DNA of 64,000 bases from a virus. The stretch spans positions 64,001 through 128,000 of the IMG/VR virus record IMGVR_UViG_3300028920_000034. One strand, written 5' to 3'. Both the position numbers and the translations under genes were made by a program. Below, piece by piece: positions 38,766 to 55,955 of the stretch. Under the pieces are notes generated by a model, which saw nothing but the letters and a program-made list of their open reading frames with translations, was not told the DNA's origin and did no database searches. Numbering within the stretch: the first letter of the stretch is position 1; each line of letters opens with the position of its first letter.

Positions 38766-39200
38766 CTACGGTCCGCTCACCCGGACAATCACCGCTCTCT
38801 CGCCAGTATTGGCTCCACCCATGACTCGAATCCCGGACGGGAACGTGTAGTATCGCCCAGCGGCGGGACCATTCGCTCCACCGTCGCCGCCCATCTTCTT
38901 GAGCATCTTGTCCAAGGGCTCCCATACCATGTTGGCCATCGCCACCAGGTTGTCAGGGGCGTTGGGGATGCTTTTGTAGCCGATGTTGAACACCCGGCTG
39001 TCCCCCCGCTTGAGAGCTCGAAGGCGCTTGATCCCCTGCTTCTTGAGCTGGGCTTTGATCTTGTCTGCCATGCTGATGATCTCAGCCACTTGCTCCTCGC
39101 TCGCAGCTTCACCCATGGCGCCAGTGGCACCAATGGCAGGAAAGTCCACCAGGCCCTGGTGCCCTCGCTCCTCCCGGAGCAATGCGTCTAGCCGATCCAT
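38766..39200 (-). CDS. Cargo-type hypothetical protein
   Basis: MDRLDALLREE...MGE|AAS, then a basic domain. Confidence 0.7.
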   Translation of the reverse strand: MDRLDALLREERGHQGLVDFPAIGATGAMGEAASEEQVAEIISMADKIKAQLKKQGIKRLRALKRGDSRVFNIGYKSIPNAPDNLVAMANMVWEPLDKMLKKMGGDGGANGPAAGRYYTFPSGIRVMGGANTGERAVIVRVSGP

Positions 39201-39265
39201 CGTTGCCTCCTTGTTCGCCGGCACGATGGCCGGGGCTTGCTTGAATTCGCGCCCCTATCCTAGCA

Positions 39266-39529
39266 CTACCGGGCGCTCGCATTCCAGTGCTCACCGAGCT
39301 GCTGTAGCCGGAGCTCCAGGAGCTCGCTCTGGCGGAGTCGCTGGCACGCCACCCACACGTGCGCCCAGAACCCCACCGACAACACCATCCCGCACGCGCA
39401 CACGGCCGCAGCGATGTTGTCCATGATGGTGCGGTCCATGATCCCGAACAGCACCGTCCCCAACAGGAACAGCGCGCCGAACACCAGGAACACCCACCCG
39501 ATCATCTTCGGTTTCCGATCTTGTTTCAT
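39266..39529 (-). CDS. Two-TM membrane protein (holin-like topology)
   Basis: Two hydrophobic helices; downstream of element copy 4. Confidence 0.55.
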   Translation of the reverse strand: MKQDRKPKMIGWVFLVFGALFLLGTVLFGIMDRTIMDNIAAAVCACGMVLSVGFWAHVWVACQRLRQSELLELRLQQLGEHWNASAR

Positions 39530-39563
39530 GGCTCCAATCTCCCCGGGCCACCACGGCCCGCAA

Positions 39564-39637
39564 ATCAAACCCTCAAGACTCTTCTCCTCTAACAGAGAGA
39601 GATAAGGTTAAGTAAGAAGAAGCAACAGCCGTGCCAA
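39564..39637 (-). repeat. 74-bp element, copy 4 (most diverged)
   Basis: Reverse complement TTGGCACGGCTGTTGCTTCTTCTTACTTAACCTTATCTCTCTCTGTTAGAGGAGAAGAGTCTTGAGGGT. Confidence 0.88.
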
Positions 39638-39646
39638 GTTGAGGTG

Positions 39647-39910
39647 CTACTTGCGGCGCTGGGCATCGAAGGCCGCACGGGTGGCCTCCACCATCGCCCT
39701 GGTGGCACCGTTGATGTGCTCCCACACGCCGTCCAGCGTGGCCTCGGAGAGCTGGCCTCGCTCGAGCTGGGTTGCGAGCTGGGTGGCCTGGGCCCCAAGG
39801 GCGCGGAGGGCCGAGACGGCACTCTCGCGGTCCTCGCCGGCCGCCGGCCGGACAGTGGGCACGTCCGCCCGCATCCGAACCTCCTCTTTCAACTGTGCCG
39901 CGTAGCTCAT
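39647..39910 (-). CDS. Small helical hypothetical protein
   Basis: 87 aa, GAGGT RBS. Confidence 0.65.
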   Translation of the reverse strand: MSYAAQLKEEVRMRADVPTVRPAAGEDRESAVSALRALGAQATQLATQLERGQLSEATLDGVWEHINGATRAMVEATRAAFDAQRRK

Positions 39911-40013: not shown

Positions 40014-42245
40014 CTACCTGGTGATGTACTGCGCGTTCACGGTCGCGCGCTGCGTCACCTTGGCCGGATCGCCATCCTTGGAGTGGTTCCAGTTTCCGAT
40101 CTGGAGGTACACGCGCGCCTGGTGACCCACCTTGTGGGTGGGGAGCTTGGGCTGCCGTTTCTCGTAGATGATGCTCTGCATCCCGAGCATCTTCCTGGGC
40201 CCCTCGTCCACGGACCAGCCGTGCGAACTCGCCCAGCCCTGGATGGCTCGCTTGAGCTCCCAGAGCTCCTTGCTCGAAAGCGGCTTCTTGCGCGTGCTCA
40301 GGGCGCTACTCATCTGGGTGTACTGATGTGGTGAGCCCTGATACTCCACCTTGCTGGTGAACTTCGGGCGCTTGATCCCAAGGGGCCGGAGCAATGGCCA
40401 CAGGGCCGCCAGGTCCTTGGGCACGGTGTCACCCTTGATCAGCTTGGGGCGCGCCGCCTCGTCCAGGTCCTCGAGCCCAGCGTCCTGGCGGAGCTCACCC
40501 AGGAGCCCACCGAGGTTGTCCTCGTCCTCCACGGACACGACGTTGCGGTTGCCGCCGGTGGCGATCTCCTCCTTGAACAGATCGGTGAGGGGGCGCCAAT
40601 CGTACTTCCGGTCCCCCTTCCACACCTTCCGCATGTCCACCATGGTCTCGTCCAGCATCTTGGGCTTGACGTTGGCGTTCTTGTGCTCGGTGTAGGTGGA
40701 CACGCTGAATTCGGTCATCCTGGGCGGAATTCGCACGATCATGGTGTGCTTCCCCAGCTTGGACTTCGTGACCCACCGCCCGGACACGGTGCCACCGGTG
40801 CCCTTGTCCCCGGTGAACCCCTTGACGCTGCCACCGATGGCCTTGCGGACCGCCTGGTCCAGCATCTTGATGATCATCATCTTGGCCTGGTGAAGCTGCT
40901 CGGGGCTGGCTGCCTCCCCGAGCTCCTGGTCCTCGAGCTCCATCCGCCCGCGCCCGCGCCCGGTCCCGTGCGGACCCTTGCCGTCCTGGACGCCGCTGCC
41001 CCGAGGTTTTCGACCACACTTGCCCTTGGCCTCCTCGAGCTCACCGAGGAGCTCACCGAGGGAGTCCTGACCCTCGTTCGCGGCGAACGGGCTACGCTTG
41101 TTGCCCGTGCCCAGCACGTACCAGCTCCCGGTGTTCGGGTCCTCGAAGTAACCCTTTTCCCCGCTCAGACCGTGGCCACCGTGGAACACGAGTCCCTGGC
41201 GCTCGGCCCACTTTTTCAGGTAGCCCTCGGAGCCGCGCTTCACCAGCACATAGCCTTGCGAGCTTCCCCGGTCAGGCGCCTTGTAGAGGCCCGCGTGCTT
41301 TTTCATGATGCCCTCGTCCAGCTCCCGCCCCTCGGGGAACAGCCCGGGCTGGCTGCCGGAGGGCATCTTGCTCGCCTTGCGGCGCCGCTTGTCGCGCATC
41401 TTCACGCGCTGCGAGGGCTCGTAGTAGTCCTTGCTGGTGAAGTAGCGATTGAAGATCTCATCCGCCATCATCCGGCCGGAAATCCGCAGCATGATCCCGT
41501 AGAACACCAGAGCCGCGTTGTCCGGGACAGCCCGAAGGTAGCTGCCCATCTTCGGGTGAACCTTGCTGGCGTTCCGAAGGAACATCTGAAATGCCTTGCG
41601 GGGAGCCCTGGCGATCACGTCCTGGGCATCGGGGATGTTGTCCGCGCCGAAAATGGCCGGGAGCTCCTCACGCGGCGCCGCTTCGATGGCGTCTCGAGTC
41701 TTCTTGAATAGGAGCATCTCAGGCCCGTGGCCGCCCTCGTCCTTCATCATTTTCAGCAATGGCGCGTCCACCTTGAACGAGCCAAGGCGACTGCGTTTCC
41801 CGCCGCTGCCCGTGGCCGCCCGCTTCTGGCGCTCGTTCAGGAGCCCAGCGTGGAACAGGATGTTGTCCGACTCCTCGAGCACCACCCCCATGAGGGCGCC
41901 CATCCGTTGCTCGTCCGTGCTCTCCCAGAGGTGCTTTCCCCACTTGCGCTGAATGTCCATTGCCACCTTTCGGGGCGTGAGCCCCTTGGAGCGCCACTTG
42001 AATCCGTGGTGTCCCTCTTCCGTTTCGCTATCGACCCAGGACTCCACGCTCAGGGCCCCTCCGCTGCGAATCGGCATGATGTAGATCACGCCGAAGGGCA
42101 CGTTCACCCCGATGGTGTCCGAGCCTTTGGTCCGGGAGTAGCTGGGGTTGGCGCCCACGGTTCCGTTGAGAATTCCGGCCACCTCGCCCCACCACTTCAT
42201 GAACCCCGTCTTGTCTTCGCGAGCAATCTTGTCCAGCGTTTTCAT
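40014..42245 (-). CDS. Multi-module cargo-type polyprotein (743 aa)
   Basis: Basic modules separated by acidic linkers: VLEE|S, LLNE|R, ELDE|G, SLGELLGELEE|A, ELGE|A, NLGGLLGELRQDAGLEDLDE|A. Confidence 0.8.
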   Translation of the reverse strand: MKTLDKIAREDKTGFMKWWGEVAGILNGTVGANPSYSRTKGSDTIGVNVPFGVIYIMPIRSGGALSVESWVDSETEEGHHGFKWRSKGLTPRKVAMDIQRKWGKHLWESTDEQRMGALMGVVLEESDNILFHAGLLNERQKRAATGSGGKRSRLGSFKVDAPLLKMMKDEGGHGPEMLLFKKTRDAIEAAPREELPAIFGADNIPDAQDVIARAPRKAFQMFLRNASKVHPKMGSYLRAVPDNAALVFYGIMLRISGRMMADEIFNRYFTSKDYYEPSQRVKMRDKRRRKASKMPSGSQPGLFPEGRELDEGIMKKHAGLYKAPDRGSSQGYVLVKRGSEGYLKKWAERQGLVFHGGHGLSGEKGYFEDPNTGSWYVLGTGNKRSPFAANEGQDSLGELLGELEEAKGKCGRKPRGSGVQDGKGPHGTGRGRGRMELEDQELGEAASPEQLHQAKMMIIKMLDQAVRKAIGGSVKGFTGDKGTGGTVSGRWVTKSKLGKHTMIVRIPPRMTEFSVSTYTEHKNANVKPKMLDETMVDMRKVWKGDRKYDWRPLTDLFKEEIATGGNRNVVSVEDEDNLGGLLGELRQDAGLEDLDEAARPKLIKGDTVPKDLAALWPLLRPLGIKRPKFTSKVEYQGSPHQYTQMSSALSTRKKPLSSKELWELKRAIQGWASSHGWSVDEGPRKMLGMQSIIYEKRQPKLPTHKVGHQARVYLQIGNWNHSKDGDPAKVTQRATVNAQYITR

Positions 42246-42249: not shown

Positions 42250-43149
42250 TCACCTCTTGCGCGTCGTCACGGACAGCTTGGCCACGCCGAACTGGACGTT
42301 GGGCACCTGGGCCGTGATGGTGAAGTAGCCCGGCACGGTCACCAGGAGGGTGTCCTCCTCGTCCGCCAGGGCCGGCTGTTCGATGTACTTGCCGCCCAGT
42401 TTCGGGGCGAGCTTGCGGAGGGCGCTCCGGAGGTTCGCCCACTGGTCTCCCTTGGCCTCGCGATAGACCGGTTTGTACCAGGCCCGCTTCACCCAGTGGG
42501 GAGCCTTCGTGTTGCGGCGCCAGCCTTTGTCCTTGAGCCACTGGTCCAAGATCGGCATGAGCTCCCACGGGTCACGCCGCTGGGCATTGGCCTCGAGGAT
42601 CAGATTACCGAGCTCGCGGACTGCCTGGAGGATGTGCTCCACCTGGGCGAACCGGGTATGCCTGGCCAGAAAACACTTCTCGCACTGGTAGTCCGTCTTG
42701 CGCTTCACGCCGCCGCACGTGGGGCACCTGGTCCGCTTCTTGACTTTGCGCTCCCCGCTGCCCAGGTCCACAGGGATGCTTTGCTGGTGGAGCTTGGCGC
42801 ACCGTGGACACCACTTCGTGCCCTTGCCGGCCGTCTTGGCCAGCTTTCGCTTGCAGTCGATACAGCGCCCCAGGAGCTCACCCGTGTGGGCCTCCTTGCG
42901 CGTGGGGGGCAACCTGAAGTCGGCCAGCTTCTGGCGACGTGTCGCCGGCTCTGGCGGGGGCTCGAGGGGCTCCGGGTCCGCCTGAGCCGGCGCCTGGCGA
43001 GGTGGCCTCCGGGGGTTGGGCACACGTCGCACGCGCGTGCGGGCTCTCGTGGCCCGCTTGCGCTCGGCCGCCCCGGAGAAGTCCAGGCCGATCTGGCTCA
43101 CCTGGGCCCTGAGCTCCATCAGGAGCTCCTGGATCGCCTCAAGGTTCAT
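42250..43149 (-). CDS. Cargo-type protein with four CxxC motifs
   Basis: MNLEAIQELLMELRAQ leader; CIDC, CPRC, CPTC, CEKC. Confidence 0.72.
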   Translation of the reverse strand: MNLEAIQELLMELRAQVSQIGLDFSGAAERKRATRARTRVRRVPNPRRPPRQAPAQADPEPLEPPPEPATRRQKLADFRLPPTRKEAHTGELLGRCIDCKRKLAKTAGKGTKWCPRCAKLHQQSIPVDLGSGERKVKKRTRCPTCGGVKRKTDYQCEKCFLARHTRFAQVEHILQAVRELGNLILEANAQRRDPWELMPILDQWLKDKGWRRNTKAPHWVKRAWYKPVYREAKGDQWANLRSALRKLAPKLGGKYIEQPALADEEDTLLVTVPGYFTITAQVPNVQFGVAKLSVTTRKR

Positions 43150-43820: not shown

Positions 43821-44444
43821 CTACCGCTTCTCGCGGGTGGCGCTGAGTACCTTGAACGCCTTGTCCTTGCGGAGGCGTTTCAGCTCCAGGCCGGTGACGC
43901 TGGTGATCTCGTAGACGGTGCCGTGCTTCGGGTCCTCGCGGGAGCCCACGTTGCCGTACTCCTCCGCGCGATACCAGGGGTCCGTCTCCCTGGTCATCTT
44001 GCCGGTGGGCGGATTCACCGCCTTCACCTCCACACGCCACCGCACGTAGTCCTCCTCTTTCTCCTGGGGCTGCTTCTTGCCGGCGAGGAGGGCCTTGAGC
44101 TTGCGAGCGCGCTCGGGGTGGTACTTCTGATAGCCGGACTTGAGCCAGGTCTCGGTGCCCTGGCGGATCAGGTCATCCGCGATAGGGCGCTGAATGCGCT
44201 GCTCCTTGCCCATCGAATAGAGCTGTTTGTAGGTCACCGCATCGTCCGTCACCCGGGTCACGAAGATGCCACTGGGCGAGCTCGAGGCGCCCATGAAATA
44301 CACCTGGTTCGGGAAGATGGTCATCCCGCCGAGCTTGCGGAGACCGCCGGACCCGATGGCGTACATGGTCTCGTCCAGGGGCTCGTCCGAGCCGCCGCGG
44401 ATCTGCTCGAGTAGCCGGGCCAGCTTCTGGGTTCTGATGCTCAT
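43821..44444 (-). CDS. Cargo-type hypothetical protein
   Basis: MSIRTQKLARLLEQIRGGSDEPLDE|T leader. Confidence 0.75.
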   Translation of the reverse strand: MSIRTQKLARLLEQIRGGSDEPLDETMYAIGSGGLRKLGGMTIFPNQVYFMGASSSPSGIFVTRVTDDAVTYKQLYSMGKEQRIQRPIADDLIRQGTETWLKSGYQKYHPERARKLKALLAGKKQPQEKEEDYVRWRVEVKAVNPPTGKMTRETDPWYRAEEYGNVGSREDPKHGTVYEITSVTGLELKRLRKDKAFKVLSATREKR

Positions 44445-44456: not shown

Positions 44457-45368
44457 CTACTTGACCGCCAGGTCACCCTTGGCGATGTGAATGGTGGCCA
44501 CCTTGGTGAGCCCCATGAACTTCAGTGCGCGCTTGGCCCCGGAGGCGTCCGGGGCCGTCATCACCAGGTGGAAGTCCGCCTGGCGGGGCTCCTGCATCCC
44601 GGGGAGCTGCACCTGCTTCAGGCGCACCGCCTGGCCGATGGCCTCGAGGGCCGGCCGCCGCATCTCTGCCCCCTCGTCCAACAGGAGCACCCCCTGGTTG
44701 GCCATGGTGAGCTCGCCTTCCACGTAGCGGCCGTTCCGCACCGTCCCGATCAGGCCCTTCATGCTCACCGTGTAGTGCGGGGCGCGAAGGGGCCCCTTCA
44801 CCATCTCCGCGATGCGCCTGGCGATCATGATCCTCCCGGACCCTGGCTGGCCGGTCAGGATGATCGGAATGTCCTGCATGATGGCCTTCAAGATCTGGTC
44901 CACCACCTTTTTCCGGACCGTCAGGTCCCGGAACTGGGTCATCCCGGGCCGGCTCGCGCGGGCCTCGGTGAGCGGCTCCGGTTCGCTGGCTCGCGGCGCG
45001 CGGATGGTCTCCAGGAGGGTGCCCAGCTTGGCCGCCCTGGTCTCCTCCACCGGGCCCAGCTCGCTCAGGTACAGATACCCTGTACCGTCACCGGACTCGA
45101 CCACGCACGCGGCTCCGCCGTCCGGGAGCTCGAAGCATGTCCGGCCGCTTTTGCTCACGGACTCCTCGAGCCCGAGCAATCCAAGGGCATGGGCAAAGCC
45201 TTTGCAGTCCTTGCTCTCGGTGAACGCGATCCACGCCGCTCCCGCCGGGGGGTCCGGCACTCCCAACGCATGGTCCCCATGCTTCGTGTAGGCCACGCTG
45301 TAGCCGCTGCGTTGCATCCGCCGGCTGATGGCCAGCATGGTCTTTCTGTACGGATGGCTGCGTCTCAT
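44457..45368 (-). CDS. Cargo-type protein with truncated ComM/YifB (Mg-chelatase-like) AAA+ domain
   Basis: KLGTLLETIR...PLTE|A linker, then IILTGQPGSGRIMIARRI, LRAPHYTVS..GLIG, GELTMANQGVLLLDEGAEM, ADFHLV. Confidence 0.8.
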   Translation of the reverse strand: MRRSHPYRKTMLAISRRMQRSGYSVAYTKHGDHALGVPDPPAGAAWIAFTESKDCKGFAHALGLLGLEESVSKSGRTCFELPDGGAACVVESGDGTGYLYLSELGPVEETRAAKLGTLLETIRAPRASEPEPLTEARASRPGMTQFRDLTVRKKVVDQILKAIMQDIPIILTGQPGSGRIMIARRIAEMVKGPLRAPHYTVSMKGLIGTVRNGRYVEGELTMANQGVLLLDEGAEMRRPALEAIGQAVRLKQVQLPGMQEPRQADFHLVMTAPDASGAKRALKFMGLTKVATIHIAKGDLAVK

Positions 45369-46083: not shown

Positions 46084-47448
46084 CTACTTCGTGAGTCCGC
46101 TGATGGTGAGCCATTTCGCCTCGCCGTCCTTGCCGGCGTAGAAGCCCACCAGAGTCACTCGGCCGCTCCCGGTGGACTTGTACTCCTCGTTCACGGCGAG
46201 GCGCCACCCGAGGTACTTCGATCCGGATGGTGCGTACTTCTGCACCATGGCCTTGGCATGGCGTCCAATCTGCACCGGGTCGATAAGCGGAAGCCCTTGC
46301 ATGTTGCTCGGAATCTTCGCCTCACCCAGGAACTCGCCTTCCAGCTCAGTGGCCTCGTACTGCATGGCCCGCTTCACCTGGAGAGGCTTCACCCACGCCG
46401 GGTGGCCGTCCAGGTCCCCGTAGGGGTTGAAACAGACCAGGTAGTGGCCTCTGTCCATGCTCCCCCGGATCAGCTTGAGGAGCGCCGCGGAGCCACCGGG
46501 GGCGATCAGCCGAACCAGGTCGCGCGGAAGGGGCCCCTGGGCGTCACCCTTGGTGGGGTACACGCGCACCACCTTGAACTGTTGGCCGTCCGCCTCGAAG
46601 GGCTGCCCGGGGCGCGGAAGGGGCGCCCGCTCCTCGAGGTACTCTCCTCCCAGCTCAAAGTCCTCCCTCACATTGGACTTGGGCTTCTTTCCGTCCTTGA
46701 GGGCCTGAACGATCTGGCGCGCAATCACCCTGGCACTGTTCCAGTGCGGATCCTTCACACCGTACAGCTTGGCCAGGTACTGCATTTCAGGCACCGTCAG
46801 GTTGGCCGCCTCCATCTTGCGCTGGAGGATGACAGCGAACGCATCGAAGCCGTACTGGTCACCCGGATACTCGCCGTCCAGGTGCCCCTTGCCCATCCGC
46901 TTGTGATAGGCGTAGAACTCCTTGGCCATCTTGTGCAGGTCCGCACCCGTGGCCTCCTCGAGACTGTCCTCGCTGCGAAGCTCACCGAGAAGTCTCTTGA
47001 GCTTCCCAGCCATCGCATCGCCCTCCAGTTGGCTGGGCGCGATCTCGCTCAGGAACACGTACCCGGTAAACGTGGCCATCGGCTTGAACGCTCCACGGAA
47101 CGGATCCAACACCACGTAGGCGTAGACACCCTTGCCAGGGCCGATGAACTCTTCGCGCTCCACGCCGTTGATGTTCCCGCTTCCCTCGTGTCGCCACCCA
47201 CCGCCGCGCTGCATGGCCGTGGAAAGCAAGGAGCGGAACTCATCGTACTGAGCTGGACCACCGGGAATCGGATAGCCCATGCCGTCCTTTTCCCGGTTGG
47301 TGTACTCGAAGGTGAGCCACTTGGTACCCTCTGGCGGATTCGGAATGCGGAACTGGCGCACTCCGCCGGACCGCCCTTTCACCTTGAAGCCATGCTTCTT
47401 GAGCGAAGATCCGATGGCGGAGATCAGCTTTGGGTAATGCTTGCTCAT
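46084..47448 (-). CDS. Four-module cargo-type polyprotein
   Basis: KLKRLLGELRSEDSLEE|A, EYLEE|R and EFLGE|A linkers. Confidence 0.78.
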   Translation of the reverse strand: MSKHYPKLISAIGSSLKKHGFKVKGRSGGVRQFRIPNPPEGTKWLTFEYTNREKDGMGYPIPGGPAQYDEFRSLLSTAMQRGGGWRHEGSGNINGVEREEFIGPGKGVYAYVVLDPFRGAFKPMATFTGYVFLSEIAPSQLEGDAMAGKLKRLLGELRSEDSLEEATGADLHKMAKEFYAYHKRMGKGHLDGEYPGDQYGFDAFAVILQRKMEAANLTVPEMQYLAKLYGVKDPHWNSARVIARQIVQALKDGKKPKSNVREDFELGGEYLEERAPLPRPGQPFEADGQQFKVVRVYPTKGDAQGPLPRDLVRLIAPGGSAALLKLIRGSMDRGHYLVCFNPYGDLDGHPAWVKPLQVKRAMQYEATELEGEFLGEAKIPSNMQGLPLIDPVQIGRHAKAMVQKYAPSGSKYLGWRLAVNEEYKSTGSGRVTLVGFYAGKDGEAKWLTISGLTK

Positions 47449-48032: not shown

Positions 48033-48482
48033 TCACTTCCAGTCCGGGAGCTCCACCGCCACCGCCTTGAAAAGCTCCTCCGCGGCACCACCGAGATACC
48101 CGTGGCACTCGTTCATGTCCTTGTTGACCTTGAGCATGAGCTCCACCATGTCAGGAATGCTGCGACCGTCACCCCGACCAGCTTGTTTCATTGCCGGCTC
48201 GAGTTGCTTCATCAGCTTCTCGGCCTTGGCCAGGTCCGCACGATGGGACTTCACCATATCGTGGAACGCTTCGATGTTGGCCATGAGCTGTTTGTACTGT
48301 GGGGGCTTGAACGCAGGCTTCCACCTGGACTCATCCAGCTCCTCGTCCTCCCCGAACATCTCGGGCTCGTACTCCTGGAGCCAGGCATCGAAGCCCTCCG
48401 CGGGCTCATTGGTCTCCTCGGGCTCGAGGCCGAGCTGGGAGCGGATGGATTCGATCAGGTCTCTTCCGGTCTCGGTGGGCAT
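48033..48482 (-). CDS. Cargo-type helical protein
   Basis: DLIESIRSQLGLEPEE...ELDE|S; AGGAGG RBS. Confidence 0.75.
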   Translation of the reverse strand: MPTETGRDLIESIRSQLGLEPEETNEPAEGFDAWLQEYEPEMFGEDEELDESRWKPAFKPPQYKQLMANIEAFHDMVKSHRADLAKAEKLMKQLEPAMKQAGRGDGRSIPDMVELMLKVNKDMNECHGYLGGAAEELFKAVAVELPDWK

Positions 48483-50340: not shown

Positions 50341-51375
50341 TCATGCGCGCTTGGCCAAGAGGGCCTCGAGGGCCCGCTTCTTGGCCTTGAGCTTGCGCTC
50401 GAGCTCCTCCGCCTCGCGCCCGGCCGCGCGGTCCCGGTAGCTCATGCCACGCTCTGCCAGCCGCCGCTCACGCCAGTCGTGCGTCACTCCGAACCCGGAG
50501 TCCTTGCGGGCCTCCGCTTCCGTCTTGCGCCTCGAGTACACGAAGGCGTCCCCGCAGCTCACCTTGAAGTTGGTGCCGTACTTCCCACCCGAGGGCCCCA
50601 CCTCTACCGGCGGGGGCTGCATCTTCTGGATCTGCTTCCAGATGGTGCTGTACTTCTTGGCCCGGTCCTTGAGGGCCGCGAGCTTGCGCTCCCACTTGGC
50701 GATGGTCTTCGCCGCGCTGGCGCCGGCCTTGGCTGTTGGCAGCAATGAGCTGCCCTTCATGCAGTTCGTCCCCACCACAGCCGTCCGCTTGTCTGCGAGC
50801 TGGACGGTGGCATGGACTTCGTGGGGGCGCCCGCACCTGGCGCACCAGCTCTCGGTGCCCGAGCCCTTGATCGGCACCCAGCGGTCATCGATCTCCTCAT
50901 AGTCCCGGGTGTCCACCACGTCCAAGATCTTGACGATGGTGTCCGGGTCCAGGCCGCCCTTCCAGCGCGTGCGCCGCTGGCGCGGGGGCTTGCGCTTGCT
51001 CGTCTTGGCAGCGAAGTCCAGTACGATCTGGCTCGCTTCGCCCAGGAGCTCCTTGGCGCCCGGGGCGAGCTCAATGGCGATGCTTTGAACGTGTGCCATG
51101 TACCCTGGTTCCCGTGGCACGCGATAGCCGTCCGCGGTCCTGAGAACGGCCAGGCCCTTGTCCACCAGAGACTTGCAGGCGTTGTAGTCCCGGCCGCCCC
51201 CACGTGTTCCGTGTGCAGACCGTGGCCCATGATAGGACCATGCCTCCGCCGTGTAGTAGCCTCTGGATGGATCCAGGAGCTGCTTCAAGATCTTCTGTTC
51301 CGTCTTGTTGAGCCTGGAGCGCCGTGGTCGCGCTTCCGCCAGAAGTTGCGCGAGCTCCTCGAGTAGTTGCTTCAT
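50341..51375 (-). CDS. Two-module cargo-type protein (wHTH-like, then Cys/His module)
   Basis: MKQLLEELAQLLAE|A; ELLGE|A; CARCGRPH...VGTNC. Confidence 0.75.
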   Translation of the reverse strand: MKQLLEELAQLLAEARPRRSRLNKTEQKILKQLLDPSRGYYTAEAWSYHGPRSAHGTRGGGRDYNACKSLVDKGLAVLRTADGYRVPREPGYMAHVQSIAIELAPGAKELLGEASQIVLDFAAKTSKRKPPRQRRTRWKGGLDPDTIVKILDVVDTRDYEEIDDRWVPIKGSGTESWCARCGRPHEVHATVQLADKRTAVVGTNCMKGSSLLPTAKAGASAAKTIAKWERKLAALKDRAKKYSTIWKQIQKMQPPPVEVGPSGGKYGTNFKVSCGDAFVYSRRKTEAEARKDSGFGVTHDWRERRLAERGMSYRDRAAGREAEELERKLKAKKRALEALLAKRA

Positions 51376-51378: not shown

Positions 51379-52608
51379 TCAGTCCCTGTTGAGCACCTTG
51401 GACACCAGGCGCTCGTATTCCACGCCTTGCCCGACATGATGCTGATCGTCGTCCTCGAATTCAGCGAACGGATCGTGCCCCGCTTGCTCGAGATAGTAGC
51501 TCACGTACTCGCGCTTGGCCGCGCCAGCGGGGACCGTCTTGAGCCAGTTGACGAACAGCTCTCCGCCGTAGGCCATCTTCGTGGCACGCTTGGACGCCTT
51601 GGCGCCCTTGGTGGCGAGCTGCTTCACGGCCGTGAGGTAGGCCACGGTCCACATCTGCCCGGCCTTGCGTTGCTTGCTCTCGTCCCACCCGAGGCTGTCC
51701 AGGATGTTGGCCAGCGAATTGGTCTCACCCATGTCGCAGTTGATCGACGGGCGCCGCTTCCACTGCTCCCAGCCTTCCAGGATGCCACCTCCGAACGCCT
51801 CGGATGCCTCCTTGGACCGCTGATCGATCTGCGCCCTGGCCACCACAGCCATCGCCTCGCGGATTTCTCCCACGATGCGCTCGAGCACCTGGAGCCCCTC
51901 CTTGTAGAGCTCCTTGTACTTGCCTTGCCCGCGCATCTCGTGAGGCATCTTCTGGGCGAGTACCCGGTCCTGGGCCGGGGAGAGCTCGCGGCCGGTCTGG
52001 AGCTGGGCCACCAGGGACTGAAGGAAGTCGTCGTCCTGGTAGGTGGGGATGGCTTGGATCTTGGAGATCATCGGAGCGTTCTTCTGGGCCCTGGCCTCCT
52101 GGGCCTTCCGCTCACCGTGGGCATCGTACAGGGTAGGCGCATCACCGTCGCGCTCGAAGGTGGTCTGCTCCACCCCGATCACTTCGCCGCCGTGATGCGA
52201 GTCCGCCTCCTTGCCCCGGCCAGCGCGCACCTTGAGCTTGGCCCGAGCCACCACTCCTCCGCCGTCCACCACGAAAGCGAAACCGTAGTAGCGGACCTTG
52301 CTGGCCGTCCGTGTGCCGAAACCTTGAATCCGGTCGGTCACCATGACGGCCATGTCGTTCGGGCCCTTGAGGTACGGCCGGGCCCACTGCTTCACCAGTG
52401 GGTTCGCCTTGAACCACCTGTCCTGGAGCTTGCGGTAGAGGAACTTCGCCTGGGCCGGAGACTTGAACTTGCCCCCGTTGTACTTGGCCAGGGAGTTGAG
52501 GGACTTCATCATGTCCTGTGGGTCGGGCCCACCGAGCCCCTCCACCAGCTCTGCGAGCTCCTCGAGGAGCATTAACGGGTATCGCTGTTTGTAGGTGGCC
52601 TTGTTCAT
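51379..52608 (-). CDS. Cargo-type hypothetical protein
   Basis: MLLEELAELVE|G tag; DDFLQSLVAQLQTGRELSPAQ module. Confidence 0.72.
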   Translation of the reverse strand: MNKATYKQRYPLMLLEELAELVEGLGGPDPQDMMKSLNSLAKYNGGKFKSPAQAKFLYRKLQDRWFKANPLVKQWARPYLKGPNDMAVMVTDRIQGFGTRTASKVRYYGFAFVVDGGGVVARAKLKVRAGRGKEADSHHGGEVIGVEQTTFERDGDAPTLYDAHGERKAQEARAQKNAPMISKIQAIPTYQDDDFLQSLVAQLQTGRELSPAQDRVLAQKMPHEMRGQGKYKELYKEGLQVLERIVGEIREAMAVVARAQIDQRSKEASEAFGGGILEGWEQWKRRPSINCDMGETNSLANILDSLGWDESKQRKAGQMWTVAYLTAVKQLATKGAKASKRATKMAYGGELFVNWLKTVPAGAAKREYVSYYLEQAGHDPFAEFEDDDQHHVGQGVEYERLVSKVLNRD

Positions 52609-52609
52609 G

Positions 52610-54253
52610 CTACTCGCTGTCCTCGAGGGCCATCGCTGCCGCGGATGGCCGGCTTTGGAGCTTACGCACCAGGTCCTTGAGGAGCCCTTTCGCGCGCCAT
52701 GCGCCCGCGCGGGCCTTGCCCACCAGCTCGGCTGCGTCCCGGGCATCGATCATTGCCGCCCGCGGGGGCGGGGGGTCCATGCGTCCGAGTAGGTCCGCGA
52801 GGGAGTCCGCGCCACGCAGGTCCACCTGGGCGTCCATGGCTGCCCGGGCGATGTACTCGAGGGGGTTGGCCTTGATCTGGTGAGCCGCGCCGCTCGGGAG
52901 GTGCAGCTTGACGGCCTCGAGGAGCCCCCCGAGGGTGTCCGTGGACTCCTGGGCGCGGAGCTTCTTGAGGTGGGCCTCCATGGATCGGATGGTCTGCTCG
53001 AGCTTGCCCTTGAGCTTGCGCTCATCACGGGAGAGCTCCCCGGCCATCCTGGCGATGGTCCGGTATTCGGCCTTGATCGAAGCGAGCTCCGCCTCGAGCC
53101 GGTCAGCGACCGTGGCCTTGGCCTCCCCGAACATGCCGGTCTGAATCGGGTCCGGACGCCGCTTCTCGGAGCCGCCGGCCCCGGGGCTGATGGTGACCGT
53201 CATGGAATCGTAGATTGCCTGGTGGGCGATCTCCACCTGGGCATTGCCCTTGCGGTAGATCCACCTGTTGCGATGTTCCCAGCCGCCCGGCTTGAACCCC
53301 GCCTCGGTGAACCCCTTGCGCTGGAGCCATTCGATGATGGCCTTCCGGCACTCATGGGGGCGCCCCACGTCGTCCTTGGACAGCACCATGCCTTGGCCGC
53401 CCTTGCCCGGCTCCACCTTGAACCGGCCGTACCGCTTGATCGCCTTGGCCAGCGCCATGGCGAACGCCACGTCCGGATCCACCAGGGGCCGGCTTTCCCC
53501 GAATAGTGCTCCCTGGCCGGTGAACTCGCGCCGGGCCGGCTTGTGCGCGCTGGGGCCTTCGGGCCCGCGTAGCTGGATGTTCCGAGAGTAGATGATCCGA
53601 ATCCCCTTGAACGGGGTGGACGATTCGATGCTCACCTCGTCCCGGTCCCGCTTGTAGATCTGCCGGTAGGGCTTGCCCCACTCGAAATCGTCCGGCTTGC
53701 CGGTCGTCTTGGCGAGCTTGAAGCCCTGACCCAGGAGGAACCGCTTGAGCTTGCGGCGCACCTCCTCGCCCTTGTTGCCCACGTCGTCGCACTTGAGGGC
53801 GTAGCTCATCGGGCCAGCAGTGTCCTGGTACTTCCAGGAGCCGGTGCCTTTGAGCTTCTCCTTGAGCTTCTCCCCGAAGTCGGCGCCCTTGGACTCCTCG
53901 AGCTCGATGCCCTCCCCGAGGCGCCGCCGGGCCTGGACAGCCACCTCGAGGGGTAGCGCGGACAGGTAGCCCTCCCGCCAGTCCTTGTTGTCGGACTTCT
54001 GGGGCACCTGGACGGCGAGCTTGGCTCCGCCTCGCCGCATGTCCACCCGGGCCGTGGCCGCGCCGGCCTTGAACGCCTTGCTCAAGGTGTTCACGCCCGT
54101 CTTGGACTTGAGCTGGGCGAGCTTGGTTTGCAGGGCCGCCACGTTGCTCGCGTCCCGATGTAGGTCTCCGAACCGGCGCTTCTTGCGCCCTTCATCGAGC
54201 TCCATGCCGGCCGCTTCGCGGATACCCTGTAGCAGATTGTCCAGATGGTTCAT
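52610..54253 (-). CDS. Five-module cargo-type polyprotein
   Basis: MNHLDNLLQGIREAAGMELDE|G, ELEE|S, LFGE|S, MFGE|A, TLGGLLE|A; two tandem related modules. Confidence 0.8.
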   Translation of the reverse strand: MNHLDNLLQGIREAAGMELDEGRKKRRFGDLHRDASNVAALQTKLAQLKSKTGVNTLSKAFKAGAATARVDMRRGGAKLAVQVPQKSDNKDWREGYLSALPLEVAVQARRRLGEGIELEESKGADFGEKLKEKLKGTGSWKYQDTAGPMSYALKCDDVGNKGEEVRRKLKRFLLGQGFKLAKTTGKPDDFEWGKPYRQIYKRDRDEVSIESSTPFKGIRIIYSRNIQLRGPEGPSAHKPARREFTGQGALFGESRPLVDPDVAFAMALAKAIKRYGRFKVEPGKGGQGMVLSKDDVGRPHECRKAIIEWLQRKGFTEAGFKPGGWEHRNRWIYRKGNAQVEIAHQAIYDSMTVTISPGAGGSEKRRPDPIQTGMFGEAKATVADRLEAELASIKAEYRTIARMAGELSRDERKLKGKLEQTIRSMEAHLKKLRAQESTDTLGGLLEAVKLHLPSGAAHQIKANPLEYIARAAMDAQVDLRGADSLADLLGRMDPPPPRAAMIDARDAAELVGKARAGAWRAKGLLKDLVRKLQSRPSAAAMALEDSE

Positions 54254-54561
54254 GGTGTGCGTTCTTCCTTGGCTGCCGCCGCCTGGACTTCCTTGGCCTT
54301 GGCTTCGATCCCCTTGGCGAGGGCGATCACCGCCTTCAGGTCTCGGCCTTTGACGGCCTTGACGAGCTTCAGGAGCTTGCCGTGGATCTCGCCAGTGCAG
54401 TTGGCGATCTCTGGCCACTGGTCCTTGCGTGGCTTGGGGTCGAGCCGTCCCGCCGGGGCGCTTCCACGGTGGCGTCCGGCGAGAATATCGTCAGCGCCCC
54501 ACCGGGTCTCGTCCACTGGCTCGAGCCCGGCCGCTTGGCGAATCTCCTCGGTGATGCTCAT
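54250..54561 (-). CDS. Small cargo-type protein
   Basis: MSITEEIRQAAGLEPVDE|T. Confidence 0.78.
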   Translation of the reverse strand: MSITEEIRQAAGLEPVDETRWGADDILAGRHRGSAPAGRLDPKPRKDQWPEIANCTGEIHGKLLKLVKAVKGRDLKAVIALAKGIEAKAKEVQAAAAKEERTP

Positions 54562-54568
54562 GGTGCTC

Positions 54569-55429
54569 CTACTTCGCGGCGAGGATCTTCGCGCCAGCGA
54601 GATTCACCACATCGAACTCGGAGCCATAGCCGGTGTCCCGCCCGCGGTAGACCTTCACGTGCAGTGGCTTGGGCGAATAGATGTTCAAGCGGTCCTCGAA
54701 GTCCTGTCCATCGGTGGCCATGCGGATGGCAGCCTTGAGGCGCTTGAGCCCCTTGATCGTGCCGCCAGAGCCCTGGACCATGCCGGTGTACTTCTTGCCG
54801 TTGGCAGTCTGAATCGTGAACGTGAGACCGTCCTTGTTGTGACTGGCCATCGCCTCGGTGAGCCCGGCCGCTTGGCGCACATCTTCCACCAGGTCCGCGG
54901 AGAACTCGGTGTCCTCATGCCGAGCTCGCTCCACCTTCCTGACGCCCTCATAGGCTGCCTTGGTGGCCGCCACCGAGGCTTCGATGGCCTCTTTCAGCTT
55001 GTAGGGGATGCCCTCTTTTCGGCTGTCGATGCCCTCCATGCCAGCCACCACCTGGTTGGCATAGTGGGCTGCCAGCTTCGCGTTTGCCCCAACGGTGCCC
55101 CGCTTCGGATTGTAGGGGGAGCGAACCTCGTCCAGCTCGGTGTCCTCCGTGTGGCCCTTGAGGGCCCACTGGAGAGCTGTCACCAGGTTGTCCACGTTGG
55201 CACCCTTGGCTTGCTCCCGCTTGGCGAACACCCAAACGCTGTTGAGCTTCTTGGCTGGCACGTTGTTCTTGAGCCAGTTGGCGAGCTTTTTGATGTGGGT
55301 GTTGCTCCACCTGGCAGGGTTGGTTTTGATCCCCGCGTTGCTGGCGAAGCTGGAAACGATTTTGGTAAGGGCTGGGTCCACCGCTTCGCCCAGCCCGGCT
55401 TCGGCGCGGATGCTTTCGATGATGTTCAC
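54569..55429 (-). CDS. Three-module cargo-type protein
   Basis: GTG start; NIIESIRAEAGLGE|A, ELDE|V, LVEDVRQAAGLTE|A. Confidence 0.78.
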   Translation of the reverse strand: MNIIESIRAEAGLGEAVDPALTKIVSSFASNAGIKTNPARWSNTHIKKLANWLKNNVPAKKLNSVWVFAKREQAKGANVDNLVTALQWALKGHTEDTELDEVRSPYNPKRGTVGANAKLAAHYANQVVAGMEGIDSRKEGIPYKLKEAIEASVAATKAAYEGVRKVERARHEDTEFSADLVEDVRQAAGLTEAMASHNKDGLTFTIQTANGKKYTGMVQGSGGTIKGLKRLKAAIRMATDGQDFEDRLNIYSPKPLHVKVYRGRDTGYGSEFDVVNLAGAKILAAK

Positions 55430-55439
55430 GATGGAGCTC

Positions 55440-55955
55440 CTACTTCTCGACGGTGAGGCCCTTTTCCGCCAGGTAGGCGAGAATGGCCTTGGTGAACATG
55501 GCACGGATGCGCTGGCTCATGGGTTTTGACCAGTCGCCTTTTTTGGCCCAGCCGGTGCCGTAGGCTTTGATCAGCTTGCGCTTGACTGCGACTGCCGCAG
55601 CGGCGGAGAGCTGGTCCAGCTTGTTGTCACTGAGGATGAGGTTGTCATCCTGGGTGAGGCCCTCCTCGAGCTCGGTGTCCACGTCTTCGCGGGTGGTGGT
55701 GACGCTCATGGGCTTACCGCCCGCGAGCCCGGCGATCCGATTCACGTACATGGACACCTGGGAGACCCGGTTGAACACGTTGAGGGCCTGGCGCCGCTTC
55801 ACGAAGTCGCCCAGCGTGTTCACGTTGCGCGCGAGTCGGTGCATGGCCTGATCCACCTTGCGCCAGGTGCTCGCGTCCATTTCGGCTTCGGTGAGGTTCT
55901 CTTTGGGCTCGAGGCCCGCGTGGCTCCGGATCTCTTCGATCAGATTCTGGCTCAT
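55440..55955 (-). CDS. Two-module cargo-type protein (first gene of the array)
   Basis: MSQNLIEEIRSHAGLEPKENLTE|AE, ELEE|G; AGGAGG RBS. Confidence 0.8.
   Translation of the reverse strand: MSQNLIEEIRSHAGLEPKENLTEAEMDASTWRKVDQAMHRLARNVNTLGDFVKRRQALNVFNRVSQVSMYVNRIAGLAGGKPMSVTTTREDVDTELEEGLTQDDNLILSDNKLDQLSAAAAVAVKRKLIKAYGTGWAKKGDWSKPMSQRIRAMFTKAILAYLAEKGLTVEK

Follow-up and report, generated by a model that had tools for sequence, protein, structure and literature searches.

We examined why a run of genes in an uncultured, T4-like phage encodes proteins with unrelated bodies and one recurring short peptide, and what this tag may do for the proteins that carry it. The window (64,000 nucleotides) represents bases 64001-128000 of a 153,114-bp IMG/VR phage record, and its real genes are all on the minus strand. 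The array of interest (38.8-56.0 kb) lies upstream of a head module encoding a T4-type portal, an S77 protease and a gp23-type major capsid protein (MCP), with its genes adjacent to and co-oriented with the head genes; it adjoins about 30 kb of small early-type zinc-finger genes. The explanation we favor, and consider fairly probable, is that the array encodes mostly basic cargo bearing a docking peptide, which is loaded into the capsid, trimmed there by the S77 protease, and probably leaves with the DNA at infection.

Head module and the shared peptide

The head genes and the sites within them (an arrow marks a predicted cut) are:

35184..36896 (-): portal protein, T4 gp20 type (PF07230, 6e-62)
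32922..33995 (-): putative scaffold, 357 aa
33930-33974 (-): conserved N-terminal peptide of the scaffold, tag-like, one residue shorter before G-L
31344..32912 (-): prohead protease, 522 aa, with S77 domain (PF03420, 5.6e-20), long helical extension and C-terminal tail
31374-31412 (-): C-terminal tail of the protease, with the tag core E-hydrophobic-R-x3-G-L-x-E↓G
29783..31282 (-): major capsid protein, gp23 type (PF07068, 4.6e-69)
31085-31102 (-): putative MCP maturation site, I-I-S-E66↓A

An earlier note on this DNA had read the same MCP site and a gp21-like protease; both agree with the sequence, as do all its coordinates, and the protease has the S77 domain. The MCP is about 30% identical to those of cultured T4-like phages; its residues L64, E66 and T68 are each at least 90% conserved among 64 homologues, and the conserved site hydrophobic-x-E66↓x-T aligns with T4 L-T-E↓A.

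The core motif comprises 13 residues (hydrophobic pair, x-x, hydrophobic, Arg, x3, Gly-Leu, x, Glu). Ten copies were found, all within nine proteins of the array, and nothing comparable occurs outside the array in the whole 153-kb genome. An HMM built from the clear copies and searched in six frames over the whole genome gave exactly nine matches of at least 11.8 bits, all in minus-strand coding frames at 40.5-55.95 kb of the window, the next match scoring 5.6 bits. A scoring matrix, trained on these nine copies from this window only, also picked out, at 21.6 bits, a tenth copy in A11 that was not part of the training set (best non-array match 13.8), and gave 16 matches of at least 10 bits compared to 1.9 in shuffles. 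The note's view that nearly all array reading frames are tagged held for the ten strong copies; six or seven further members have only weak variants, and those in A10, A13, A14, A16 and A20, together with the first copy of A17, do not rise above the non-array noise at 5-10 bits. Its second signature, an L/I-x-E site, was enriched but only moderately, with hydrophobic-x-E-[AGST] at residues 5-35 in 9/18 plus 7/16 compared to 27/140 (p = 0.0016). About 15-17 tag instances in at least two leader families are statistically secure, instead of the single tag on about 25 genes proposed previously.

All tag copies, as far as the letters tell, end in or near hydrophobic-x-E↓small, the same rule as that of the MCP maturation site; three strong tags read on as G-L-E-P, so that the first Glu falls outside the rule and the cut is to be placed more distally. 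Tags are 13-20 residues long with at least three sequence variants, of which the third is common to A5 and A6. The leaders are net acidic, as had been claimed; the amphipathicity claimed with it was unremarkable, the hydrophobic moment lying at the 30th-90th percentile. Conservation at tag codon positions 1/2/3 was 0.57/0.68/0.46. The third position being the least conserved, selection acts on the tag peptide, and the tag is conserved as peptide, not as DNA.

Array proteins, internal tag copies and a second leader

The members of the array are:

55440..55955 (-): A1, 171 aa, basic, RBS seen; class I tag at residues 4-23 (55887-55946), ending L-T-E↓A, 35.3 bits
54569..55429 (-): A2, 286 aa, two-module protein; one class I tag is N-terminal (55385-55426) and a second lies inside the protein (residues 179-192, 54854-54895), both ending G-L-x-E↓A
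54250..54561 (-): A3, 103 aa; class I N-terminal tag (54508-54558), 33.1 bits
52610..54253 (-): A4, 547 aa; class I N-terminal tag (54191-54238), net charge past the tag +31
51379..52608 (-): A5, 409 aa, start corrected to 52608; class III leader L-L-E-E-L-A-x-L-x-E↓G (52540-52575)
50341..51375 (-): A6, 344 aa, pI 10; class III leader (51334-51369) ending L-A-E↓A
49686-50159 (-) and 49096-49689 (-): A7 and A8, untagged, with lipoprotein-type signal peptides, interrupting the array
48033..48482 (-): A9, 149 aa, acidic body; class I N-terminal tag (48411-48461), 31.2 bits
47458..48024 (-): A10, 188 aa; weak class II N-terminal variant (47947-48012)
46084..47448 (-): A11, 454 aa; internal class II tag at residues 151-165 (46954-46998), ending L-E-E↓A, 21.6 bits
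45379..46074 (-): A12, 231 aa; internal class II tag at residues 82-97 (45784-45831)
44457..45368 (-): A13, 303 aa; weak internal tag at residues 116-135 (44964-45023), ending L-T-E↓A, 9.9 bits, then a partial AAA+ (Mg-chelatase/ComM-like) domain (PF01078, 6.7e-15)
43821..44444 (-): A14, 207 aa; weak N-terminal variant (44370-44420), 5.2 bits
43152..43811 (-): A15, 219 aa, acidic body; internal class II tag at residues 78-92 (43536-43580), ending L-M-E↓A, 27.8 bits
42250..43149 (-): A16, 299 aa, pI 10.3, zinc-ribbon-like; weak N-terminal variant (43078-43137)
40014..42245 (-): A17, 743 aa; two internal class II copies, weak at residues 397-405 (41031-41057, 6.0 bits) and strong at residues 579-596 (40458-40511, 31.4 bits)
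39647-39910 (-): A18, untagged
39266-39568 (-): A19, membrane protein
38766-39200 (-): A20; weak N-terminal variant (39108-39188), 9.7 bits

The description of the bodies as unrelated and K/R-rich was confirmed: all-against-all blastp found no relationship except between A11 and A13, whose N-domains are paralogues, and weakly between A1 and A9, and the pI was at least 9 in 13/17 array proteins compared to 38/141 others (p = 1e-4), with A9 and A15 the two acidic ones among the tagged bodies. Neither MuF nor other hallmark modules were detected in the bodies by Pfam or PHROGs, nor any Pfam family of the giant-phage pfam12699 type, and no anti-defence domain was recognized in the window's array.

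The tag had been described as preceding its domain. This applies to several proteins with an N-terminal tag; however, seven copies are internal, 80-580 residues in (the second of A2, those of A11, A12, A13 and A15, and two in A17), and in lying behind folded N-domains such copies are unlike the classical capsid-targeting sequence (CTS) of T4. In a low-confidence model of A15 the tag forms a helix joining two parts. Judged by their internal copies, several array proteins look like two- or three-part polyproteins, A17 being a candidate for three parts; this appearance was missed in the earlier note. The internal copies suggest a strategy of polyproteins processed by the head protease, of which we found no description for T4-type phages.

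The same tag had also been assigned to about nine genes at 19-28 kb, and here the sequence disagreed: a different leader, motif B ([D/E]-R-[L/I]-x6-hydrophobic-x-[D/E]-A), is N-terminal in five of these genes by the strict pattern, which was derived post hoc and gave 8 matches compared to 0.16 in shuffles. The cluster also holds ordinary neck genes. Its leader-bearing members are:

28129..28398 (-): B1, 89 aa; motif-B N-terminal leader (28357-28395)
24857..25777 (-): B5, 306 aa; motif-B leader (25730-25768) ending V-T-E↓A
24419..24850 (-): B6, 143 aa; motif-B leader (24800-24838)
23630..24334 (-): B7, 234 aa; motif-B leader (24287-24325)
22626..23006 (-): B9, 126 aa; motif-B leader at residues 14-26 (22929-22967)
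21125..21712 (-): B11, 195 aa; N-terminal protease-tail-like peptide (21650-21685)
19163..19753 (-): B15, 196 aa; looser acidic leader (19694-19747) ending L-N-E↓A

The protease tail and the scaffold terminus

The core of the tag, E-hydrophobic-R-x3-G-L-x-E-small, is found again in the S77 protease of this phage, within its C-terminal tail. As a pattern, hydrophobic-R-x3-G-[L/M]-x-E occurred 5 times compared to 0.39 expected, three times in the array and once in the last 20 residues of the protease. This tail is conserved family-wide (6414 relatives; tail Gly at least 90% conserved), its best-conserved part being a helix plus the Gly, with the following Glu missing in many homologues; tails also keep a Leu two residues before the Gly, whereas most tags lack it. 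In a model of the protease the S77 fold was confident at residues 1-155, and the tail formed a short helix (502-508, pLDDT about 79) between disordered stretches, residues 456-491 being disordered. With a profile of 70 foreign tails, the best match was the phage's own protease tail, followed by the A3 tag and then the N-terminus of B11 (6.7 bits), with E-values of 0.08 or worse, and in the forward test 17/150 best matches fell in the tail compared to about 8 expected; the likeness of tag to tail, as read from these comparisons, is statistically modest. Complex prediction for the MCP with the protease tail scored 0.32 (best control 0.00; contacts agreeing by at least 37%, partner pLDDT at least 42), a range (0.60 or below) that contained only 7 of 80 solved complexes but both mismatches of the calibration, such that passing with this score would mislead more often than not. 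The calibration mark itself was reached by 58/80 solved complexes and 2/110 mismatched pairs. The prediction lends weak support to binding of the tail to the MCP.

The tag ends in the cutting rule of the protease and resembles its tail; therefore about 15-20 array proteins are probably loaded into the capsid and trimmed there. The tag would dock its cargo into the core or shell of the assembling prohead, like the protease's own C-terminal tail; upon closure of the head shell the S77 protease would cut at the Glu of the hydrophobic-x-Glu↓small site, which would free the N-terminal leader and split the proteins with internal copies into two or three pieces; and the basic bodies would remain among the DNA as internal head proteins, probably to exit with it at infection. 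The second, different leader would mark five to seven proteins downstream of the capsid gene. Indirect but independent support for head loading and trimming came from the likeness of the tag to the conserved protease tail, from the MCP rule in which the tag also ends, and from the transfer of the tag matrix to a distant relative (below), where it selects N-terminal leaders and proteins of the prohead core. Docking, cleavage, virion residence, ejection and any anti-defence role of the array proteins are what we infer, and an early-effector role is suggested by analogy with T4 Ip1-3 (PMC12373910).

We consider it quite unlikely that the motif does no more than extend the site which the S77 protease recognizes and cuts, carrying no targeting information, with proteins brought into the prohead by other means. 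Each copy does end in or near the cut site, the seven internal copies serve as linkers, the sister phage (below) has the consensus G-L-x-E-[A/S], the cut site thus being part of the motif, and a cut in the tail, nine residues from the protease end, would be autoprocessing as in SPN3US (PMC7411985). But ten further upstream residues are conserved here, where T4 gp21 needs the three-residue rule only, and the family-wide tail is best conserved apart from the Glu. Moreover, a substrate must be inside the prohead to meet an enzyme active there, so that some targeting signal is needed anyway.

Less likely still, and in our estimate very improbable, is that the shared peptide acts outside the virion, as a degron or as a point of grip for a chaperone or for the AAA+ protein A13, so timing or folding early host-takeover proteins. 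Both the neighboring early-type genes and the AAA+ domain encoded inside the array fit this explanation, but it leaves unexplained why the tag resembles the protease tail and scaffold terminus, why it fits the MCP cutting rule and why copies occur as internal linkers; the array genes adjoin the head genes in the same orientation, and the AAA+ protein itself bears a tag copy.

A further extension of the capsid-loading explanation is possible, though we hold it more doubtful than not: that the tag reproduces an ancient peptide for docking, which T4-like prohead proteases of a very large family have at the C-terminus and scaffolds at their termini, and that this peptide binds the inner face of the MCP and serves as a clade-wide head-loading code. 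If so, an uncultured T4-like clade would pack large, fast-changing effector banks by one code, the cargo would include polyproteins cut by the head protease at internal copies of that code, and recognition of the classical T4 CTS would be explained as well. C-terminal tails bind capsid protein in the HK97 protease, the herpesvirus scaffold/protease precursor and the P22 scaffold, and in encapsulins a short terminal cargo-loading peptide anchors proteins inside an HK97-fold shell. In those systems the peptide is on one or two assembly proteins or a few enzymes, whereas the array represents a large bank of unrelated proteins. The likeness to encapsulins is an analogy of mechanism only, and a cargo peptide of their type (C-terminal, G-S-L-type, for a portal-less HK97-fold compartment) was rejected, this being a tailed phage with a portal and with N-terminal or internal tags of another consensus.

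Related phages and known systems

A near-identical sister phage has head genes 96-99% identical, and array modules added, lost or re-ordered at tags. It keeps the second module of A2 alone, has a different tag on the A4 body, an extra 88-residue N-domain before the A10 tag and body, and the A11 tag at the N-terminus; it lacks A12 and B1, conserves B5, and has A7 and A8 at 93-97% identity.

A more distant, 125-kb relative (MCP 71% identical, GC 39%) has an array as well, in which at least 17 genes in a row begin with the leader M-[S/T]-K-L-E-x-L-L. With the tag matrix, 5 of its top 8 matches were at residue 7 of different proteins, and after the leaders came the scaffold N-terminus (fifth-best match) and the protease tail; among windows of at least 8 bits, five were N-terminal compared to no internal ones, of 154. 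Scaffold and protease both end in the tail motif followed by Pro-Tyr. Some of the array bodies are homologous to A5 and A12, that of A12 being directly behind an N-terminal leader; the B7 homologue starts just past the position of the B7 leader, and the B11 homologue bears a tag-type leader.

These comparisons bear upon two other explanations. That the motif is functionless, a relic of gene duplication or a recombination cassette (promoter, RBS, first codons) used repeatedly, could be argued from the sharing of more than the tag by A11/A13 and A1/A9 and from the shuffling of modules at tags. However, in both phages conservation is lowest at the third codon position, with synonymous variation in the relative's leaders and unrelated DNA upstream of them (26% identity); promoter cassettes cannot account for internal copies, and the motif persists on non-homologous bodies in relatives of 39% and 64% GC. 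The variable third position and unrelated upstream DNA largely refute this explanation, to which we give next to no chance.

It is considerably more credible, although still unlikely, that the array proteins are packaged and trimmed as a structural inner core, resembling an inner body, that condenses DNA or neutralizes its charge, and are not injected anti-defence effectors. The high pI and net charge (up to +31) and the lack of a recognized anti-defence domain in the window's array would fit this, as would the heads of giant phages, packed with abundant processed proteins of unknown function (PMC5694885). Against it, fillers are usually conserved or paralogous whereas the array bodies are unrelated; the bodies turn over between phages with nearly identical head genes, which is an arms-race-like pattern; a gene in the relative's array has a DNA methyltransferase domain (PF01555, 8e-36) together with the first residues of the leader; and the basic Ip proteins of T4 are restriction inhibitors (PMC12373910).

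Among known systems, phiKZ and SPN3US likewise have many head proteins with x-x-Glu sites for a gp21-type protease (PMC5694885, PMC7411985), those of the array being predicted. Giant phages remove N-terminal stretches of 80-130 residues, which may have counterparts in the N-domains of A11, A12, A13, A15 and A17, where 80-580 residues precede tag and site, and the C-terminal propeptide of the SPN3US protease gp245 was proposed to target the prohead core (PMC7411985). Their processed proteins form paralogue families with no short shared tag defined, whereas here unrelated bodies share a discrete 13-residue motif matching the protease tail; membership in such families was rejected from the blastp comparison and the lack of a Pfam family. 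In the P1 head an N-terminal signal of at most about 30 residues suffices to load a large enzyme (PMC9024508), and DarB has a DNA methyltransferase, like the relative's array; but P1 Dar proteins lack a consensus leader (PMC9024508), and removal of the P1 signal by a protease is not known. Polyvalent proteins, multi-module and thought to be packaged, processed and delivered with the DNA (PMC5512222), show module turnover as in the array, which differs in having mostly single-module genes instead of one giant polypeptide; without MuF or hallmark domains by Pfam and PHROGs, membership was rejected.

The concept of a head-loading tag is not new, and the array is probably a much enlarged, modular variant of the T-even system of CTS and internal proteins, the precedents for a capsid-targeting leader (PMC3012670, PMC8442874, PMC12373910). 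T-even ip loci encode unrelated proteins with the packaging leader alone in common (PMC3012670, PMC12373910). As in the array, T4/T-even Ip1, Ip2, Ip3 and Alt go with a gp20 portal, S77 protease, scaffold and gp23 MCP; the proteins are unrelated and mostly basic, with a short acidic leader ending hydrophobic-x-Glu, at a locus that varies among close relatives. The T4 leader resembles the scaffold N-terminus (PMC8442874), as here, gp22 itself beginning with a CTS-like peptide. T4 has three tagged genes and all T-evens about 10 (PMC12373910), compared to about 15-17 in this genome. The array differs further in its longer tag with several variants, the second leader family, bodies of up to 743 residues, and internal copies that give polyprotein-like architectures.

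If the capsid-loading explanation is right, about 11% of the genome would encode capsid-delivered proteins, five times the number in T4. Since the gene set changes between phages with such similar head genes, arrays of this kind would offer a ready-labelled source of candidate anti-defence or host-takeover proteins in unculturable lineages. The likeness among tag, protease tail and scaffold terminus offers a concrete candidate answer to the old T4 question of what the CTS binds, and a well-defined, portable tag with its own release site would be of use for filling capsids with proteins, a purpose that the T4 CTS already serves. The array tags have no sequence similarity to the 10-residue T4 CTS (PMC8442874); the M-S-K-L-E leaders of the 125-kb relative are loosely reminiscent of it.

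The tag motif of the array and its limits

The source record (153,114 bp) is rated complete by CheckV; the window, bases 64001-128000, has a G+C content of 64%, and all of its convincing genes are on the minus strand. The genes of the head module are listed here; a tail sheath gene is present further down from the major capsid protein (MCP).

Head module of the window
35184-36896, minus strand: portal, T4 type (PF07230, 6e-62)
32922-33995, minus strand: scaffold candidate of the T4-type head module, 357 residues, acidic/basic
31344-32912, minus strand: protease, 522 residues, with a Peptidase_S77 domain (5.6e-20)
29783-31282, minus strand: MCP, gp23 type (4.6e-69)

The S77 domain bears out the gp21-like protease that had been proposed for the window. 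No close cultured phage was found (MCP identity at most 33%), and the lineage with exactly this tag is represented by two nearly identical genomes. Starts of the array genes (A1-A20, 55955 down to 38766) and of the genes of the second cluster (B1-B16, 28398 down to 18765) were set from ribosome-binding sites; genes outside the window were called by a simple G+C-third-position method.

The strict pattern of the 13-residue tag occurred in eight copies in minus-strand coding frames, along with one chance match on the plus strand. A tag HMM built from the clear copies and run in six frames over the whole genome gave nine matches of 11.8-20.1 bits, all within window 40.5-55.95 kb, and the next match scored 5.6 bits. 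A position matrix trained on the nine tags placed its top ten sites in a 220-protein gene set all within the array; the tenth, the A11 copy, was outside the training set and scored 21.6 bits, compared with 13.8 bits for the best non-array site. Sixteen sites reached at least 10 bits, versus 1.9 in shuffled proteins. The shared motif claimed in the earlier note for the 38.8-56.0 kb array is thus real, and the HMM confirms its restriction. The best non-array site, MCP residues ~289-301 (window 30380-30420), is conserved in the MCPs of three relatives; this may represent chance, or the capsid protein may have a tag-like helix of its own.

The tag consensus is two hydrophobic residues, x-x, hydrophobic, Arg, x-x-(Ala), Gly, Leu/Met, x, Glu. 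Class I copies combine Glu-rich positions 3-4 with Ala-Gly-Leu and are N-terminal in A1, A2, A3, A4 and A9, with a second copy internal to A2; class II copies begin Leu-Gly-Glu-Leu-Leu-Gly and are internal in A11, A12, A15 and A17. A third leader (N-terminal copy), L-L-E-E-L-A-x-L-x-(x)-E followed by Gly/Ala, is common to A5 (start corrected to 52608) and A6. The proposal that nearly every array ORF carries the tag stands for ten secure sites, whereas the six variants in A10, A13, A14, A16, A20 and the first A17 copy score at noise level (5-10 bits, on par with some unrelated proteins); their position and context make them plausible, yet none is secure on its own. The tag does precede the domain in class I proteins, as had been described, but seven copies sit behind 80-580 residues and are not leaders; because of the internal copies, A2, A11, A12, A13 and A15 look two-module and A17 three-module. 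The tag had also been called amphipathic, but its hydrophobic moments are ordinary. Identity across the nine copies was 0.57, 0.68 and 0.46 at codon positions 1, 2 and 3, in a genome whose third positions are strongly G+C-biased; the third position being the least conserved, the repeat is maintained as a peptide.

Array protein bodies and the sister phage

All-against-all blastp of the array proteins found similarity limited to the tag, except for an N-domain common to A11 and A13 (E = 7e-5) and a weak A1/A9 match; the bodies (the rest of each protein) are otherwise unrelated, as had been claimed. Paralogy as the origin of the tag was ruled out by the same comparison. An isoelectric point of at least 9 was found for 13 of 17 soluble array proteins versus 38 of 141 elsewhere (p = 1e-4), and net charge was -1 to -8 for leaders and +7 to +31 for bodies; the description of the bodies as basic holds apart from the body of A9 and the whole of A15, which are acidic. 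Pfam and PHROGs searches with the 20 array and 16 B proteins recovered almost nothing besides a head-tail adaptor, B3, and, following the tag in A13, part of an AAA+ domain of Mg-chelatase/ComM type; A16 has a zinc-ribbon-like stretch. ESM Atlas gave no usable match for A17 or A4, a PDB sequence search gave no significant match for A17, A4 or A11, and the single-sequence model of A15 was too poor for use (pLDDT 39.8).

A7, A8, A8b and A19 are untagged lipoprotein or membrane proteins. Lipoprotein-type signal peptides occur in A7 and A8 (49096-50159) and in a 205-residue portal neighbour (37447-38064); A8b (48651-48779) and A19 (39266-39568) are small membrane proteins in or beside the array. 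These untagged genes are 92-100% identical in the sister phage, where the tagged genes vary, and they could have spanin-like or exclusion functions.

In the sister phage (IMGVR_UViG_3300029258_001212, 153.5 kb), the head proteins match those of this phage at 96-99% identity, but the array differs. It lacks A12 and B1, A1, A3 and A20 are matched only in part at 35-46% identity, and A4, A5, A6 and A17 are matched at 73-80%. Its layout is changed at tag boundaries: there is an additional tagged gene upstream of A1; one protein consists of an A1-like tag, 90 residues and then the second tag/module of A2; a different class I tag stands ahead of the A4 body; an additional 88-residue N-domain precedes the A10 tag and body; the A11-type tag is N-terminal, versus behind a 150-residue domain here; and a new tagged gene takes A12's place. 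The sister-phage tags are mostly G-L-x-E-[A/S], and therefore the cutting rule belongs to the motif. Only the sister phage came out of a metagenome scan with A13; scanning IMG/VR with the portal and A4 gave, besides the sister phage, distant relatives without the array. The additional gene upstream of A1 corresponds in place to window 55956-58030, ~2 kb with 70% G+C and no convincing gene except one small ORF (56182-56367, 58-61 residues) that is conserved in the sister phage.

The second cluster and the 125-kb relative

The earlier note had extended the same tag to 19-28 kb, but B1, B5, B6, B7 and B9 start with a different 13-residue leader (motif B), [D/E]-R-[L/I]-x6-hydrophobic-x-[D/E]-A. 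This pattern, derived from the same five leaders, had eight matches versus 0.16 in shuffles; it and the core patterns were defined post hoc, after data inspection. B15 has a looser version, the B11 N-terminus is a peptide resembling the protease tail, and the cluster also holds ordinary neck genes, among them the head-tail adaptor. The loose site hydrophobic-x-Glu-[AGST] was present at residues 5-35 in 9 of 18 A proteins, 7 of 16 B proteins and 27 of 140 others (combined p = 0.0016); the cleavage signature proposed for both clusters is, in this loose form, moderately enriched. Motif-B leaders were found again in the 125-kb relative and in two other relatives. A 310-residue acidic gene between portal and scaffold (34041-34973) has a motif-B-type site at residue 213, and a tag-like site lies at residue 250 of its 307-residue homologue in the 125-kb relative; this protein may be a further protease substrate of the core.

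MCP homologues are known at 65-73% identity, and one of these is on CAZLJI010000001.1 (125,304 bp, 39% G+C), binned with an Ignavibacteriaceae MAG. This contig has the character of a phage along its whole length, with terminase, portal, protease and MCP genes and 164 of its 182 ORFs on the same strand; it may be a binned phage genome rather than bacterial DNA, and the bin label may still hint at the host. The nine-tag HMM missed its diverged leaders, and a matrix with substitution pseudocounts was needed. When the matrix, made from this window's nine tags only, was applied to the relative's 182 ORFs, five of the top eight matches lay precisely at residue 7, each in a different protein. Next came a site close to the C-terminus of the 310-residue head gene's homologue, the N-terminus of the scaffold, the C-terminal tail of the protease and a motif inside the protease. 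Scores of at least 8 bits were reached by five of 154 proteins within the first 20 positions, versus none in a random internal window. Directly downstream of the relative's terminase, at 89-100 kb, at least 17 adjacent genes start M-[S/T]-K-L-E-x-L-L. Two bodies in this array have homologues in the window, A5 and A12; the counterpart of A12 comes directly after an N-terminal leader. Another member (contig 95884-96771) is a DNA N6/N4 methyltransferase (PF01555, 8e-36) with only the first six leader residues, M-S-K-L-E-K, in common; if packaged, it would be a parallel to P1 DarB.

Leader codons 2-5 of the relative are conserved at 0.78, 0.84 and 0.50 for positions 1, 2 and 3, and the DNA upstream of its leader genes is unrelated (26% identity). 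Since the third position is the least conserved and the upstream DNA is unrelated, it is hardly conceivable that the motif is a functionless relic or a DNA cassette; a cassette origin was ruled out on these two grounds. Outside the window, a 212-residue protein (genome 137797-138435) has a tag-like start, scoring 7.4 with the matrix at residue 10. Its homologue is encoded within the leader array of the relative and weakly matches a phosphoribosyltransferase; the 212-residue protein is possibly a stray member of the tag system.

Protease tail, cutting rule and probable head loading

The last 20 residues of the protease include E-hydrophobic-R-x3-G-L-x-E|G, the spacing of the tag core. Across the proteome, five copies of hydrophobic-R-x3-G-[L/M]-x-E were counted versus 0.39 expected (three in the array, one in the protease tail, one elsewhere). 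An exhaustive search gave 6414 protease relatives, 377 of them at E <=1e-30, mostly of ~520 residues and including one of 82% identity (P0001); the C-terminal tail is widely conserved in the family as G-hydrophobic-x-hydrophobic-x-E-hydrophobic-[R/K]-x-L-[S/A]-G-hydrophobic, with the Gly at least 90% conserved in a 68-sequence alignment. For 17 of 150 foreign proteases, versus ~8 expected, the best match of the tag matrix lay within the 40 C-terminal residues. A profile of 70 foreign tails scored highest on the tail of this protease itself (7.3 bits), followed by the A3 tag (7.1 bits) and the N-terminus of B11 (6.7 bits); A2, A4 and A14 ranked below these, and no E-value was better than 0.08. 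Tails retain a Leu two residues before the Gly, which most tags are without. Judged by sequence, the likeness of tag and tail appears statistically supported to only a modest degree. A second conserved protease motif, hydrophobic-x-E-Q-V-R-S-E-L-L-S-D-P at residues ~228-240 (window 32150-32230), was repeatedly matched by the tag matrix in foreign homologues (P0002-P0149) and resembles the A9 tag, which ends L-E-P.

In the AlphaFold model of the protease (mean pLDDT 81.8), the S77 domain is confident and leads into a long scaffold-like extension of helices. A disordered stretch (456-491) comes next, and after it a short helix at 502-508 (confidence up to ~79) with the look, in the model, of a docking peptide. 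Prediction of a complex between MCP and protease 455-522 scored 0.32, versus 0.00 for the best of three controls; in calibration, 58 of 80 solved complexes passed the mark, as did 2 of 110 mismatched pairs, and those passing with a score of 0.60 or below were only 7 of the 80 solved complexes together with both mismatches. Contact agreement in these runs was at least 37% and partner pLDDT at least 42. The prediction is a hint only that MCP may bind the tail. The scaffold N-terminal peptide, kept in all relatives, is tag-like and one residue shorter, which parallels the CTS-like (capsid targeting) peptide at the start of T4 scaffold gp22; in the 125-kb relative, scaffold and protease both end in the tail motif followed by Pro-Tyr. 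For the gp21-type protease of SPN3US, a C-terminal propeptide has been proposed to target the enzyme to the prohead core (PMC7411985). We consider it very improbable that the motif is a cytoplasmic tag, e.g. a degron or chaperone handle.

MCP residues L64, E66 and T68 (own numbering) are at least 90% conserved in 64 homologues, which places the putative maturation cut at I-I-S-E66|A, the site named in the earlier note and the counterpart of L-T-E|A in T4 gp23. Each tag has hydrophobic-x-Glu and then a small residue within a few residues downstream; three class I tags continue G-L-E-P, and therefore their usable site is the next one downstream, which in A1 is predicted to be L-T-E|A. A cleavage site that has no targeting role is an improbable reading of the motif.

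In T4, a leader brings the protein into the scaffolding core and is removed by gp21, and the basic body remains with the DNA and is then ejected (PMC3012670, PMC5694885, PMC8442874); the three Ip proteins of T4, with the leader alone in common, each inhibit a different type IV restriction enzyme (PMC12373910). By analogy, the leader here would take the tagged protein into the scaffolding core of the prohead, the S77 protease would cut it off, and the basic body would stay with the DNA until ejected. This T4-like account of leader-directed loading, trimming and ejection is the simplest for the array and probably the right one, with ejection and anti-defence roles its least secure parts. That the array proteins are packaged, but as structural fillers, seems unlikely, though less so than the other alternatives. 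The principle is already known for T-even phages. New with respect to the literature searched are the scale (15-17 tagged genes in a single genome, taking up ~17 kb), the presence of a comparable array in a relative whose base composition is very different, a different, longer tag in several variants together with a second leader family, the apparent use of the tag as an internal linker in polyprotein-like genes, and its putative likeness to a family-wide protease tail.

The large terminase lies outside the window (genome 150817-152880) and precedes the portal by ~50 kb. Distant relatives (portals 42-50% identical) have it directly upstream of the portal, without an array there, and in the 125-kb relative the gap holds only the leader array and ~17 kb more; the array has the appearance of an insertion between terminase and portal. 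A search for a sigma-54-type promoter ahead of the array found none before A1, and the pattern count was not above chance. Exact TGGCAC-N5-TTGC elements are present on the minus strand at 39622-39636 and 24401-24415, before A19 and B7 and co-directed with the genes; others, among them 48574-48588 and 3707-3721 on the plus strand, point against the genes.
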